From the UHGV virus genome UHGV-1651579: DNA of 21,812 nucleotides, one strand, 5' to 3'. The notes beneath the pieces were generated by a model. That model was given only the letters and a program-made list of their open reading frames with translations. It ran no database searches and was not told the DNA's origin. Of this stretch, positions 857-4,972 are shown piece by piece (position 1 is the first letter of the stretch; each line of letters starts with the position of its first letter). The position numbers and the translations under genes were made by a program. Source of the stretch: a virus.

Positions 857-972
857 GCCGTTTCCCGAAAAAATCTTGGCCGTTTCCCGTCGGCTCATGA
901 ATGCGTTCCTCGCCGTTTCTGAAAATTTCCCTGCGGCAGCTGGTGGCTATAGAGAAAGGGCCGTTTCTGGCC
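857..972. repeat. iteron-like array of GCCGTTTCCCG / GCCGTTTCTG units (about 22-bp spacing)
   Basis: copies at 857-867, 879-889, 911-921, 959-969; related array at 4841-4972. Confidence 0.6.
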
Positions 973-973
973 C
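958..973 (-). terminator. hairpin GGGCC-N6-GGCCC followed by T-rich tract on minus strand
   Basis: lies immediately 3' of the stop of CDS 983-1465 on the minus strand. Confidence 0.45.
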
Positions 974-982
974 TCTTCTCAG

Positions 983-1465
983 TTACACGCCATCAAGGAT
1001 GTGGATGCGGTTGCTTGCGTATACATTCAGCATAAAGTTAGCGCAAAACAGTTTCCATGTGTCAACGCCAGCGGCATACGTAATGTTTTTGCATTTTATC
1101 GCATTGTTGGCGATCCGCATCCCCTGCGATACTGCTTCATCGTCGGAAAATTTGAACGACGATTGAGTTTTAATCCAGACAGAAATCTGCGTAGCGAACT
1201 CAATCAGCTTGGACTGGCAGAATCGCCCGGAGCGCACCGGGAAGACAAATGTTCCGAAGCCAGAATTTGCGACATACGCTTTCTCAATTACCCGTGAGTA
1301 ACGACGATTGCAAATGATGTCGCGTGCAATAATGCATTTTTCTTGTGCTGACAGTTCTACCGTCTCATTGTCGCGCCATGCACCAAGTACTCGTTTTTCA
1401 ATATCAGAGAACGTTACAGCGATATTGCCATGTGCGGGTGCGTTTACAGTAGCGATAAAATTCAT
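983..1465 (-). CDS. PsiB-like (plasmid SOS-inhibition family) protein, tentative, 160 aa
   Basis: ATG at 1465 with AAGGA 8 nt upstream; from memory of F PsiB: GFGTFVFPV block and C-terminal IHIL at matching spacing; family assignment needs a search. Confidence 0.5.
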   Translation of the reverse strand: MNFIATVNAPAHGNIAVTFSDIEKRVLGAWRDNETVELSAQEKCIIARDIICNRRYSRVIEKAYVANSGFGTFVFPVRSGRFCQSKLIEFATQISVWIKTQSSFKFSDDEAVSQGMRIANNAIKCKNITYAAGVDTWKLFCANFMLNVYASNRIHILDGV

Positions 1466-1484
1466 GATTAATTCCTTATCGTAA

Positions 1485-1500
1485 ATAACAAATTGTTTTC
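1485..1500 (-). promoter_or_regulatory. P1 box copy a (ATAACAAATTGTTTTC) within promoter/leader cassette 1466-1560
   Basis: near-palindrome AACAA-A-TTGTT; in gene orientation cassette reads TTGACG-N17-TAATTA-CACCAACAAG-AAAACAATTTGTT...AAGGA...ATG. Confidence 0.6.
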
Positions 1501-1640
1501 TTGTTGGTGTTAATTATCGTTGTACGAATAAGGCGTCAAAGTGGAAAGTTGCGGTAGCCGGACGGGAACAGGTGGGTTTGTCGGTTGCCTGGAGGTAAGA
1601 GGTTGGTGTTTTTAGCCTGCGGGAAACAGGATGGTCATTT

Positions 1641-1664
1641 AAGGCCACCAGCATTGGTGGCCTT
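1641..1664. repeat. hairpin element AAGGCCACCA-gcat-TGGTGGCCTT (copy 1)
   Basis: 10-bp perfect stem directly 3' of CDS 1670-1951; related copies at 2112-2135 and 8015-8036; contains Chi complement CCACCAGC. Confidence 0.6.
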
Positions 1665-1669
1665 ACTCT

Positions 1670-1951
1670 TTAGTGGAGCAGACCGATGTCGATGGTATCC
1701 CCTGAATCATCCACACGGATCATCAGCATGGCGAAGGCGTTTAGTGGATAGCTTGCGTGCCATTCAGGGAAGCGGTCATCTCGCATGAAGTCGGCAATGT
1801 CGTAAACGCAGCCCTCAAAGTGGAAGAATCGCGTGCTTACCTGCTCGTCATATTCCACATGATCCATTTCTTGCTGTTCTGTTTCCGGCAAGTCCAGCCA
1901 TGATTCAAGGAATACATTTTGTGCTTTAGGGGTAATGGTGAAATCAGTCAT
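1670..1951 (-). CDS. hypothetical protein (about 93 aa)
   Basis: track ORF 1670-2083 runs through the upstream cassette; internal ATG at 1951 has GAGGA at good spacing (alternative ATG at 1957). Confidence 0.5.
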   Translation of the reverse strand: MTDFTITPKAQNVFLESWLDLPETEQQEMDHVEYDEQVSTRFFHFEGCVYDIADFMRDDRFPEWHASYPLNAFAMLMIRVDDSGDTIDIGLLH

Positions 1952-1970
1952 GAGCATATCCTCACTGCGT

Positions 1971-1984
1971 AAACATATTGTTTT
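1971..1984 (-). promoter_or_regulatory. P1 box copy b (AAACATATTGTTTT) within cassette 1958-2040
   Basis: cassette aligns with 1466-1560 copy, including CACCAACAAG. Confidence 0.6.
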
Positions 1985-2111
1985 CTTGTTGGTGTAATTA
2001 TCGCAGTGTAGATAAGGCATAAAAGAAGTTAATACAGGCTGAATACACAAGAAAGGTTCTGGAAGTTGATAGCCAGGTTTCAAACTAACCTTCGGTTATT
2101 AAAAGTCATTT

Positions 2112-2135
2112 AAGACCACCAATGCTGGTGGCCTT
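2112..2135. repeat. hairpin element AAGACCACCA-atgc-TGGTGGCCTT (copy 2)
   Basis: one stem mismatch; loop inverted relative to copy 1; contains Chi GCTGGTGG at 2124-2131. Confidence 0.55.
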
Positions 2136-2140
2136 AATAA

Positions 2141-2284
2141 TTATCGCCCGATTACGCTAAGGATCTTTTCCTCAACTGATTTGTTGTTGCGACTAAACTG
2201 CCTTGCGTATCTTATGACAGAAGAGGCGTTTCGCTTTCTGACCATCTCGGCTCTCTCCTTCAGGCGTTTCTTGAAATCGCCCAT
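2141..2284 (-). CDS. possible small basic protein (47 aa, MGDFKKRLKERAEMVRKRNASSVIRYARQFSRNNKSVEEKILSVIGR)
   Basis: hand-translated; not in ORF track (below its size cutoff); ATG starts 2 nt after stop of CDS 2287-2661 and ORF ends 6 nt before hairpin 2112-2135. Confidence 0.25.
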   Translation of the reverse strand: MGDFKKRLKERAEMVRKRNASSVIRYARQFSRNNKSVEEKILSVIGR

Positions 2285-2286
2285 AT

Positions 2287-3214: not shown

Positions 3215-3230
3215 AAGTAAGTACTTACAA
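3215..3230 (-). promoter_or_regulatory. P2 box copy 1 (aaGTAAGTACTTACaa)
   Basis: 12-bp perfect palindrome GTAAGTACTTAC about 40 nt upstream of ATG 3174. Confidence 0.55.
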
Positions 3231-3231
3231 T

Positions 3232-3261
3232 ACAAAAAAGCCCCGAAGGATTGGCGGGGCT
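3232..3261 (-). terminator. rho-independent terminator on minus strand (AGCCCCG-N9-CGGGGCT + TTTTTTG)
   Basis: 7-bp GC stem followed by T-run on minus strand; 3' of CDS 3296-3607. Confidence 0.6.
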
Positions 3262-3295
3262 GTCGTACATTCGACTAACTACTGCTTGCACATGT

Positions 3296-3607
3296 TTAAG
3301 CTACCGCCTGAACAGACGCTCGTTGGATCTCTTGTTGGGCGACACGGTTGGCTTCCATCAGCGCCAGTTCAAGCTGGTCCTCTGGCCACATTTTCTGGAC
3401 CGACATCCACCCTCTTCCACGCTGGCGACGAACTACCATCACATAGCGCGTAAAATTGCCCGCGTCGAAGGTAATGGCTTTTTCACGAAACAGACGGATA
3501 GAAGTCCCATTCGCTACGATATCCAGCAATGTGAGATGCCCCATTAAGGTTGGTTTTTCTTTTCTCTCCTGGCCTTCAGCAAGACCCAGCACCAATGAAG
3601 TATTCAT
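3296..3607 (-). CDS. hypothetical protein (103 aa)
   Basis: start revised to ATG at 3607 (GGAG upstream); track ORF extends to 3637. Confidence 0.5.
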   Translation of the reverse strand: MNTSLVLGLAEGQERKEKPTLMGHLTLLDIVANGTSIRLFREKAITFDAGNFTRYVMVVRRQRGRGWMSVQKMWPEDQLELALMEANRVAQQEIQRASVQAVA

Positions 3608-3618
3608 CACCACTCCGT

Positions 3619-3632
3619 AAACAAATTGTTTT
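3619..3632 (-). promoter_or_regulatory. P1 box copy d (AAACAAATTGTTTT)
   Basis: about 12 nt upstream of ATG 3607; cassette variant shares ACTGGTATTRTTTACGC with copy e. Confidence 0.6.
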
Positions 3633-3767
3633 CTCAATGGCGTAAATAATACCAGTGTAAAAACGGCTACAAAGCATATTGCTCAGGCACATGAATTATC
3701 TAAAGGTGGTTCTTCCCTGCGGCTACAGAGAAGTTAAGCCAGCAGGCGGTGCTGGCTTTGGTTGGGC

Positions 3768-4097
3768 TTACGCGAATAACTCAAGGAATTCCTGCACGTC
3801 CCAATGCTGGACAAGGTGAAGATAGAGCTTAGAAATCACGTCATTCTCGCTATCGCATGTGAAGTAGTACTTCTGGCTGCGGTTGTATGTGTCCACACAA
3901 AATTCGCTCATATCCATAAAGTCAGCATCTTCACCCATGTCGCAAATAATCAAAGCAGGAGCATCATCACGAGTCATCAGCTCAAGCACCCAGCGCGAAT
4001 TGATCAGCGTGGAAGACCAACCTTCTAACTCATAAAACTGGTCAAACTCTTTTTGAGTCATTTTCTTGATTTGGTTGATGTCGATATTTGCAAACAT
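3768..4097 (-). CDS. hypothetical protein (109 aa)
   Basis: track start at 4163 is TTG inside the cassette; ATG at 4097 has AAGGA 7 nt upstream. Confidence 0.5.
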   Translation of the reverse strand: MFANIDINQIKKMTQKEFDQFYELEGWSSTLINSRWVLELMTRDDAPALIICDMGEDADFMDMSEFCVDTYNRSQKYYFTCDSENDVISKLYLHLVQHWDVQEFLELFA

Positions 4098-4109
4098 AAA
4101 GCAATCCTT

Positions 4110-4123
4110 AAACATGTTGTTTT
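4110..4123 (-). promoter_or_regulatory. P1 box copy e (AAACATGTTGTTTT)
   Basis: immediately upstream of RBS of CDS 3768-4097. Confidence 0.6.
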
Positions 4124-4236
4124 CTGAATTGCGTAAACAATACCAGTAAGAAAACGGCCACAAAGTATATCGTTACGGTGCTGCGCTGCCCCGGAGGTTA
4201 ATAGCGACAAAAGCCACCGTGCTGGTGGTCTCACTC

Positions 4237-4455
4237 TTAATCTTCGTCGTCCGGGAACTCGCTGTGTACCGCGTCCACCAGCTCCCGCTTTTCATCTTCA
4301 CTAAGCAGGTGCCAGATATCCTTCCCTTTGGGCGATTCCCCTTCTGCCGGGACGAACGACCACAACTTGCGGTACAACTCCGGCCCCACTGCATCCAGAC
4401 ACTCAGCCAGGGAATCCACGCCCCACACCTCAACCGTCACAGGCATCTTAATCAT
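4237..4455 (-). CDS. hypothetical small acidic protein (72 aa)
   Basis: ATG at 4455 with GAGGA 7 nt upstream; overlapping ORFs 4173-4433 and 4219-4482 look non-proteinaceous. Confidence 0.5.
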   Translation of the reverse strand: MIKMPVTVEVWGVDSLAECLDAVGPELYRKLWSFVPAEGESPKGKDIWHLLSEDEKRELVDAVHSEFPDDED

Positions 4456-4487
4456 CTCTTCATCCTCACTTCGTTTCTATAACGTCT

Positions 4488-4501
4488 AAATATGTTGTTT
4501 A
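4488..4501 (-). promoter_or_regulatory. P1 box copy f (AAATATGTTGTTTA) within cassette 4456-4540
   Basis: followed by CTTGTTGGTGTTATTATCGC as in cassettes a and b. Confidence 0.55.
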
Positions 4502-4840
4502 CTTGTTGGTGTTATTATCGCAATAAGACAAAGGCGAAAAAGGATTTTATGTCGGGAAAGCCAGGCTGGGCAGTGAATATCCGGGAACGACACGGGAGCC
4601 AGTATTTACGATATTCTGCTCTACGCGCGCCGCGGGGCTGGTGGGCAGAATATCCTTCTCCCCGAAAACCTACTGAAATCGCTTGAGATCCGATGATGGT
4701 CTGGCAGACTGGAGTCCAGTAGCTGCACGAGAGGGAATGACACTCCCCCGCGATTTTCAGGCGAGTGAAGAGTAAGGCGCACTCCCGAAGATTTCCCGCA
4801 CTGCTCCCGCAGTCGTCTCTCACTCTGTACCGGGATGTAC

Positions 4841-4972
4841 CCGTTTCCCGACCGGCAGCCAGCCTTTTCCCGGTTCGTATAGCGGGATTCCCACCGTTTC
4901 CCTGAAAAACCTCCAGCCTTTTCCCTGCGGCGACGTTCCCGTTCCTGAAAAGGGACATGGCCTTTTCCCTGG
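4841..4972. repeat. iteron-like array of six CCKTTTCCCKG units at 21-31 bp spacing
   Basis: units start at about 4841, 4862, 4894, 4917, 4934, 4960; shares TTTCCCTGCGGC with array at 857-972. Confidence 0.6.

Follow-up and report, generated by a model that had tools for sequence, protein, structure and literature searches.

The present analysis concerns two arrays of short direct repeats in a 21,812-nt stretch of DNA from UHGV virus genome UHGV-1651579 (the window, to which all coordinates refer unless a relative is named). Array A (857 to 937) and array B (4840 to 4970) lie on the plus strand at the two ends of an island of small leftward genes, and both are built from an asymmetric 10-bp motif with the consensus GCC(G/T)TTTCCC, that is, GCCKTTTCCC, of which each array has three to six copies on the same strand. 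Judged by its matches, the window is part of a phage-plasmid of the SSU5/pHCM2/pMT1 type. Megablast searches with positions 600 to 5200 returned about 45 E. coli plasmids at 98 to 99.7% identity and, at a greater distance, 776 records of plasmids (Klebsiella, Escherichia, Enterobacter, Yersinia, Salmonella, and others); SSU5-group phages, namely SSU5, Cyrano, PhiR41_1, and phages of Klebsiella, were matched too, and the assignment therefore follows from plasmid records and phages taken together. Among PLSDB records, 769 were matched by array A and 529 by array B.

Array A opens with unit 1 (857 to 867), which reads GCCGTTTCCCG followed by AAAAA and is invariant in eight relatives derived by BLAST. 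Unit 2 (879 to 889) repeats GCCGTTTCCCG 22 bp after unit 1, a spacing kept in 72 of 72 main-lineage loci, and the family-conserved unit 3 (912 to 937) reads GCCGTTTCTGAAAA, with GCCGTTTCTGA at 912, and overlaps the longer string TTTCCCTGCGGC. In array B, motif scans and alignments place units 1 and 2, CCCGTTTCCCG and GCCTTTTCCCG, 22 bp apart at 4840 to 4872 (starts at 4840 and 4862); units 3 to 6 (4893 to 4970), which are paralogous to array A, start at 4893, 4916, 4938, and 4960, and the copy at 4938 is degenerate (CCCGTTCCTGA). An earlier reading of the locus from its letters alone (the sequence-only reading) had listed most of these units. Its copies at 857, 879, and 911/912 in array A and its positions in array B hold, except that a copy given as 4934 sits at 4938 and that a fourth unit of array A, at 959, belongs to a transcription terminator (see below). 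It had also noticed the string common to both arrays, which is TTTCCCTGCGGC at 926 to 937 and 4920 to 4931. Alignment of array A with the right half of array B scores 44, compared to 18 ± 2.3 for shuffled sequences (shuffle maximum, 25), and the common part is a three-unit module: CCGTTTCCC-GAAAAA, 22 bp, GCCKTTTCCC-KNCGGC, a variable spacer, and CCGTTYCTGAAAA. By this alignment, the two arrays are paralogous to each other.

The motif is strongly concentrated at these two places. Seven exact copies of CCKTTTCCC are present in the window, where about 0.3 are expected, and all seven are on the plus strand and confined to 857 to 889 or 4841 to 4969. A motif search on a complete 110-kb relative, pTB212, gave the same picture, with six of seven exact matches in the two arrays and 1.5 expected in the whole genome on both strands. 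Scanning the window with a position weight matrix (PWM) added degenerate copies at 912, 4938, and 960; outside the arrays, the sole strong site in the 21.8 kb was a 12.9-bit match at 20897 on the minus strand. Weaker copies upstream of the promoters of the repeated cassettes described below (at 1573, 1630, and other positions) are at noise level (29 compared to 15 ± 4 expected) and were discarded. When 596 Gb of genome sequence was scanned for pairs of units at a distance of 22 bp, chance matches from unrelated taxa swamped the result. The information content of the alignments is limited to about 10 bp (G-CC-K-TTT-CC-C) and the spacers are nearly free, which is the signature of sites for a sequence-specific protein. 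The pattern of a conserved motif between variable spacers supports the protein binding that the sequence-only reading had suggested for the arrays.

The spacing of the units, described earlier as mostly two helical turns, is a property of the main lineage, since it differs from one lineage to the next. Among 38 different array-B versions of the main lineage, motif starts are separated by 22 bp (102 times), 23 bp (11 times), 21 bp (twice), 31 bp (21 times), 44 bp, 52/53 bp, or 66 bp, so that 113 of 144 intervals measure 22 or 23 bp; the main-lineage pattern is 22/31/44, and array A has 22 and then 33/34 bp. Elsewhere the units are 7 to 36 bp apart: 34/24/28/36 bp in the lineage of L076, 33 to 34 bp in that of Moellerella, and, in L080, 7 to 18 bp, where units overlap. 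Within the window alone, autocorrelation at the level of bases was borderline (lags of 22, 23, 44, and 54 bp at z of about 3, where the family-wise 95% null is 3.1 to 3.35) because just some 10 of each 22 bp are constrained. Alignments of array B contain indels of 1, 22, and 44 bp. The number of units in array B varies from three to six among relatives, whole units being gained or lost in 22-bp steps, and function therefore tolerates three to six sites. In Klebsiella, the 31-bp interval has been shortened to 22 bp by a deletion of 9 bp, which roughly keeps the helical face. The 22-bp register probably stems as much from growth of the array by 22-bp duplications as from functional constraint.

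Between the arrays lie seven leftward genes (983 to 4455, minus strand; one more than the six counted from the sequence alone) encoding proteins of 160, 93, 124, 131, 103, 109, and 72 aa, all of them in PHROGs of unknown function. Most have their own copy of a repeated promoter/5′-untranslated region (5′-UTR) cassette and a terminator. The last gene of the island (983 to 1465, minus strand) is followed directly after its stop codon by an intrinsic terminator hairpin (952 to 980, minus strand; −19.4 kcal/mol, z of −3.46) and then UUUCUCU, and the loop and stem of this hairpin happen to read GGCCGTTTCTGGCC. In relatives, the stem changes in a compensatory manner from GGGCC/GGCCC to GGGGC/GCCCC; together with the folding, this identifies the supposed unit at 959 as the terminator. 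The cassette itself is 43 to 72 bp long and occurs 9 to 10 times upstream of minus-strand genes (1473 to 1515, 1958 to 2000, 3606 to 3648, 4097 to 4139, 4475 to 4517, 5883 to 5925, 7244 to 7286, 11711 to 11753, and 12914 to 12956). It contains the palindrome AAACAAnTTGTTT just 5′ of the ribosome-binding site, whose position suggests a shared operator or an element of mRNA-level control. A second palindrome, GTAAGTACTTAC, is repeated upstream of several minus-strand genes (3215 to 3226, 16136 to 16147, and 21601 to 21612, with variants at 10009 and 14941) and may represent another class of operator.

The placement of the arrays is the same throughout the family. In intact relatives, a set of leftward-running genes (the terminase genes, a gene for a protein resembling the small terminase subunit [TerS], an ABC ATPase gene, and two ParB_N genes) is followed by a rightward operon with a UvsW-like helicase gene, small genes, a FljA-like gene (PF03614), the gene for a 216-aa protein that we call p216 (phrog_1513), and a gene for 73 to 76 aa, with terminators at the end. 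Beyond it come a repeat-rich spacer of 450 to 600 bp, array A, the leftward island, array B, and a gene-free stretch of about 1 kb that is rich in G+T on the plus strand. Tracing outward by protein homology, we found this synteny in three further lineages: that of L076, in which the 160-aa protein g160 is 51% identical; that of plasmids from Moellerella, Pectobacterium, and Providencia, in which p216 is 34% identical; and the GC-richer L080/L081. All four lineages have clusters of the core CC(K/Y)TTTCCC, always on one strand, at these two syntenic places, and the hosts with the identical motif core belong to four families of Enterobacterales; one lineage has the variant CCYTTTCCCC. Array A is situated 20 to 225 bp past the last island gene and array B 350 to 600 bp upstream of the first in every lineage, with 1.5 to 4.2 kb between them, and bracketing of the gene block, as proposed from the sequence alone, was seen in every lineage examined. 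The gene content of the island is largely replaced between lineages (3 to about 12 genes; g160 is restricted to two of them). Furthermore, the arrays are unchanged among relatives whose replicons are typed as rep_cluster_488 or rep_cluster_973 or are untyped. A mosaic junction lies about 23 bp to the left of unit 1, where E. coli type-2 plasmids are 95 to 97% identical from position 834 on and unrelated leftward. Full-text searches of the literature on the family, its repeats, and the motif strings yielded no description of the arrays.

The surroundings of both arrays contain further conserved or repeated elements. To the right of array B, alignments reveal a conserved flank (4990 to 5090, plus strand) with GTTACGGGGGA at 5009 to 5019, CTTGAATTTATACG at 5032 to 5045, and a C/T-rich tract; CTTGAATTTATGCG of this flank is kept in the distant relative L076. 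A conserved non-coding stretch with a strong excess of G+T (5100 to 5900, plus strand; 67 to 83% identity across the family) continues the gene-free region of 1.4 kb in which array B is situated. Its plus strand has a GC skew of up to +0.46 and an AT skew down to −0.52, and it includes 30-bp repeats (5526 to 5622, related to 1578 to 1641), longer ones of about 90 bp, and promoter cassettes in degenerate form. Between the rightward operon and array A, the spacer holds some eight (T)AACGCG(C/T)T motifs, which point either way (404 to 700); in other lineages, the spacer repeats are of another kind, a 17-bp unit present five to six times in the Moellerella lineage (L078, 10099 to 10201) and a TTTAGCC type in L076 (about 8740 to 8800). 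The alignment-conserved Chi octamer GCTGGTGG (939 to 946, plus strand) abuts array A and is treated here as its neighbor. This E. coli octamer is about 20-fold in excess in the window (13 copies compared to about 0.7 expected; plus strand, 939, 2124, 4221, 4637, 15484, 20636, and 21658; minus strand, 770, 1645, 4275, 6717, 16236, and 16753) and in the 110-kb relative (30 compared to about 3.4), and several copies are inside terminator hairpins between small genes. Farther away is a RepFIB-type replicon (18236 to 18719, 19856 to 20131, and 20311 to 20492) with 21-bp iterons to either side of repA, DnaA boxes at 18143 and 18518, and a 41-bp tandem repeat (3.4 copies, 95% matches) downstream.

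The arrays are not coding sequence, in agreement with the sequence-only reading. A 147-aa open reading frame (ORF) over array B (4515 to 4958, minus strand) splits into three frames in relatives (tblastn), the arrays tolerate the indels mentioned above, and the ORFs running through them had no Pfam or PHROG match. A structured RNA could be rejected as well: RNAalifold on ten diverse array-B sequences gave unfavorable covariation terms on both strands (+1.15 and +0.29), single-sequence folding of the arrays was unremarkable against shuffles (z of −0.3 to +1.6, the minus strand of array B folding worse, at +1.6), and an Rfam scan of the whole window found no match.

The left neighbor of array A in every lineage is the gene for p216, which ends 550 to 760 bp to the left of the array. 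In p216, an orphan protein, a helical hairpin at the N terminus is followed by a winged helix at the C terminus, and the predicted hairpin is plausible as an oligomerization module. Winged-helix domains of Cdc6/Orc1 are among its best fold matches, with MarR, ArsR, and Fur scoring equally; no distant homologs were found in IMG/VR. Of the 18 residues that are invariant between lineages, five (D, T, Q, Q, and G) belong to the putative recognition helix or immediately precede it; variants of this helix are TQANQL, TQTNQA, and TQCDQT. The sequence-only reading had stated that no initiator gene adjoins the arrays, but this was an effect of the window edge, where the winged-helix gene that adjoins array A across the family is truncated. 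The plus strand here carries a putative terminal inverted repeat of an IS5-family element (41 to 56), followed by the last ten codons of p216 and its stop codon (57 to 87; HNYLADTFKA). Positions 1 to 56 are not homologous to p216 of an intact relative, and homology begins at 56; the string at 41 to 56 reads as an IS5-family terminal repeat, and a record that is 99.7% identical has ISKpn26 annotated at exactly this place. No intact or other copy of p216 is present within the window.

Other proteins of the family were also considered as ligands of the arrays. The FljA-like gene (21301 to 21828 in the relative L012; PF03614, "repressor of phase-1 flagellin," E value of 1.5e-95) is absent from the Moellerella lineage, and its product is therefore probably not the ligand, since the arrays are kept there. 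By eye, the protein looks like two Sm-like repeats, and the gene is probably an accessory one that would act on host flagellin mRNA. In all lineages, the morphogenesis operon begins, beside the terminase genes, with the genes for two proteins with ParB_N domains and a 212-aa ABC-type ATPase (L012, 16908 to 18910, with equivalents in L078 to L081; 45 to 80% identity), which are alternative candidates for array binders.

Starting from the sites, their conservation and placement, and the fold and synteny of p216, all of which are established in this analysis, we infer that the arrays most likely serve to dock a phage-encoded DNA-binding protein rather than as plasmid replication iterons, and that they probably act at the level of DNA. 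In kind, they are iteron-like protein-binding arrays; what is unusual is their deep conservation across the phage-plasmid supercommunity, their strict pairing around a hypervariable island, and the orphan winged-helix partner. We tentatively favor, at somewhat less than an even chance, a model in which the arrays are paired binding platforms on double-stranded DNA (dsDNA) for a phage-core protein and mark, and probably bridge or control, the island ends. In this model, one sequence-specific protein would read the GCC(G/T)TTTCCC clusters, the arrays would mark both ends of a leftward island in which small early or accessory genes turn over fast, and the protein bound at both arrays would probably pair them, looping out about 4 kb, so that the loop controls or insulates the island. 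p216 is the leading candidate for this ligand, although a rather doubtful one. Parallels are found among phage regulators: operators of the P2 C repressor are direct repeats 22 bp apart from center to center, and lambda OL and OR form a long-range operator loop. Like the P2 operators, the arrays consist of asymmetric direct-repeat sites two helical turns apart, and, like OL and OR, they are two clusters of sites kilobases apart that could be bridged by an oligomeric regulator. Unlike either, they overlap no recognizable promoter, and the presumed immunity repressor of the family is encoded elsewhere (CYRAN_45; PMC9928086).

Several observations weigh against this model. Looping is a matter of pure inference, and the arrays contain no detected promoter. 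Among the proteins of the region, p216 is one of the least conserved, with about 34% identity between lineages, compared to 61% for the TerS-like protein, 67 to 70% for the ParB-like proteins, and 80% for the ABC ATPase (61 to 82% with the large terminase subunit [TerL] included); with the DNA core being identical, the ligand may thus be a different protein of the phage or a host factor shared among Enterobacterales. The insertion has disrupted p216 in the window and yet the arrays are intact, an observation that is uninformative if the insertion is recent. Outside the main lineage, a spacing of 7 to 36 bp, with units that at times overlap, is a poor fit to helical phasing and to one protein per unit, and the irregularity leaves room for a reading at the level of single strands or RNA.

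The main rival to paired platforms on dsDNA is a bipartite lytic origin, in which one array and its flanking repeat-rich or gene-free region would form the origin that operates upon induction, the other array a distal cis enhancer, and p216 the initiator. The model for such a layout is the satellite phage P4, in which ori and crr, two clusters of the type I iterons of the alpha protein, are 4.5 kb apart; SPP1 has oriL and oriR. As in P4, the same short site occurs in cis in two directly oriented clusters, kilobases apart, which are part of the phage core and not of a plasmid Rep system, and a gene for a winged-helix DNA-binding protein is nearby. The Cdc6/Orc1 match of p216, its position at the end of an operon that begins with a UvsW-like helicase, the lineage-specific repeats in the spacer between p216 and array A (AACGCG, 17-bp, and TTTAGCC types), and the long, strand-skewed, gene-free region conserved beside array B in the whole family would all suit an origin. 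However, the winged-helix match is generic, and, unlike in P4, the arrays have no linked primase-helicase initiator (which p216 is not) and no adjoining gene for a primase or helicase loader, and they tightly bracket a variable island. In addition, neither array has DnaA boxes (TTWTNCACA occurs in the window only at 12895, 18143, and 18518) or a marked AT-rich unwinding element (the local GC content is 0.54 to 0.60), and the cumulative GC skew of the complete relative follows gene orientation and gives no origin signal. Taken together, we regard a lytic origin as unlikely, but as the alternative most deserving of attention. Alternatively, in line with the module-delimiting role raised by the sequence-only reading, the arrays may be sites of a dedicated recombinase or homology anchors of the hypervariable island through which related phage-plasmids exchange small genes. 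The great differences in island content between lineages in which both arrays stay, the mosaic junction next to unit 1, and the direct orientation, which would permit deletion or duplication of the island, speak for recombination; nevertheless, it is 10-bp cores alone that are conserved, not long tracts of homology, and the promoter cassettes of the island, being longer, are the better homology substrates. No recombinase gene is adjacent (the integrase of the family is far off) and no variant with a single hybrid array and a deleted island was seen; we regard recombination as improbable. A slightly smaller chance is given to the possibility that the arrays are read in the form of RNA or of single-stranded nucleic acid, or that a host factor reads them, with GGGAAA(C/A)GG on the minus strand (the sense strand for the island genes) serving CsrA/RsmA or the C/U-rich plus strand serving the loading of Rho. 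The identity of the motif core across four host families in the face of the divergence of p216, the irregular spacing in other lineages, the strictly one-stranded polarity, and the low structure of the array-B minus strand are consistent with it, and units such as CAGGGAAAAGGC may resemble some CsrB repeats. A sponge of the CsrB/RsmZ type is unsupported because GGA is not enriched (10 compared to 7.2 expected in array B and 7 compared to 7.4 in the adjacent region), and conserved hairpins are lacking. Moreover, the conserved positions reach well beyond GGA, rut sites are normally not conserved in sequence, and no Rfam family is matched. Little transcription of array A is expected because it comes after one intrinsic terminator on the minus strand and two terminators on the plus strand, and in Cyrano lysogens the ORFs called over the array region are not among the expressed genes (PMC9928086).

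The unit core CGTTTCC, when checked on the lambda sequence, is also the core of the three R sites of lambda cosB, CGTTTCC(G/T)TTCT, which raises the question of packaging sites of the pac or cosB type for the small terminase subunit. As in cosB R1 to R3, where the small DNA-binding domain of gpNu1 recognizes the sites, several copies are present; multi-site arrays on one helical face are typical of TerS recognition, and the TerS-like protein (phrog_867, "DNA binding domain") is 61% conserved. Yet a 7-mer match is weak evidence, and the arrays differ from cosB in being two, 4 kb apart, with units in one orientation, and in being separated from the terminase genes, in every lineage, by 8 to 9 kb that include a divergent operon. 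The TerS-like protein has no similarity to lambda Nu1 (no Pfam Nu1 match; BLASTP E value of 6), and linear phage records do not have the arrays at their ends; our literature searches found no terminus or packaging data for the family. We consider this function very improbable. Plasmid maintenance, the possibility raised by the sequence-only reading in the form of iterons or a centromere, is the least credible of all. Here, the arrays would be handcuffing or incompatibility sites of RepA or be of the parS or parC kind, and indeed two arrays flanking genes recall incC/incA of P1 or parC1/parC2 of pB171. With the iterons of P1 and of F RepFIB, where incC and incA flank repA, they share the 22-bp register of direct repeats (in the main lineage, though not in the three others), the gene-flanking arrangement, and the variable number of units. 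In contrast to these, no Rep gene is situated between the arrays, and repA (18800 to 19855) of the RepFIB-type replicon, 14 kb away, is bordered on either side by 21-bp iterons of its own, CCACTATAGAGAGCAAAATAA, that are unrelated to the array units, with DnaA boxes there but none alongside the arrays, which also stay unchanged with other replicon types. A centromere finds no par operon adjoining either array: the neighbors are p216 and p73 on one side and small genes of PHROGs of unknown function on the other. The nearest ParB_N genes, two in number, are about 5 to 6 kb to the left in the morphogenesis operon, and the ATPase there is of the ABC and not the ParA type. Likewise, the winged-helix centromere binders TubR (tubC) and ParR (parC) differ in that no TubZ, ParM, or ParA gene is adjacent here and in that the arrays are conserved whatever the par system; partition systems differ within the family (for example, a P7-type system in pMT1).

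In sum, we prefer paired binding platforms on dsDNA at the ends of the island, read by a protein of the phage core. In its most far-reaching form, which we consider unlikely as a whole, this would make the arrays and p216 a hitherto unrecognized boundary system of SSU5-type phage-plasmids: p216 would coat and bridge both arrays, and the loop would enclose the island, silence or insulate it in the plasmid prophage, and define a slot for gene exchange. The early genes of the island possibly serve anti-defense or host takeover. The family includes pMT1 of Yersinia pestis, pHCM2 of Salmonella Typhi, and hundreds of resistance-carrying plasmids of Klebsiella, E. coli, and Enterobacter. For these elements, a conserved pair of cis sites together with an orphan DNA-binding protein and a variable island offers a testable handle on the little-known regulation of early genes and the start of lytic replication, and the arrays can be used as a simple sequence marker to locate the variable island in new genomes.

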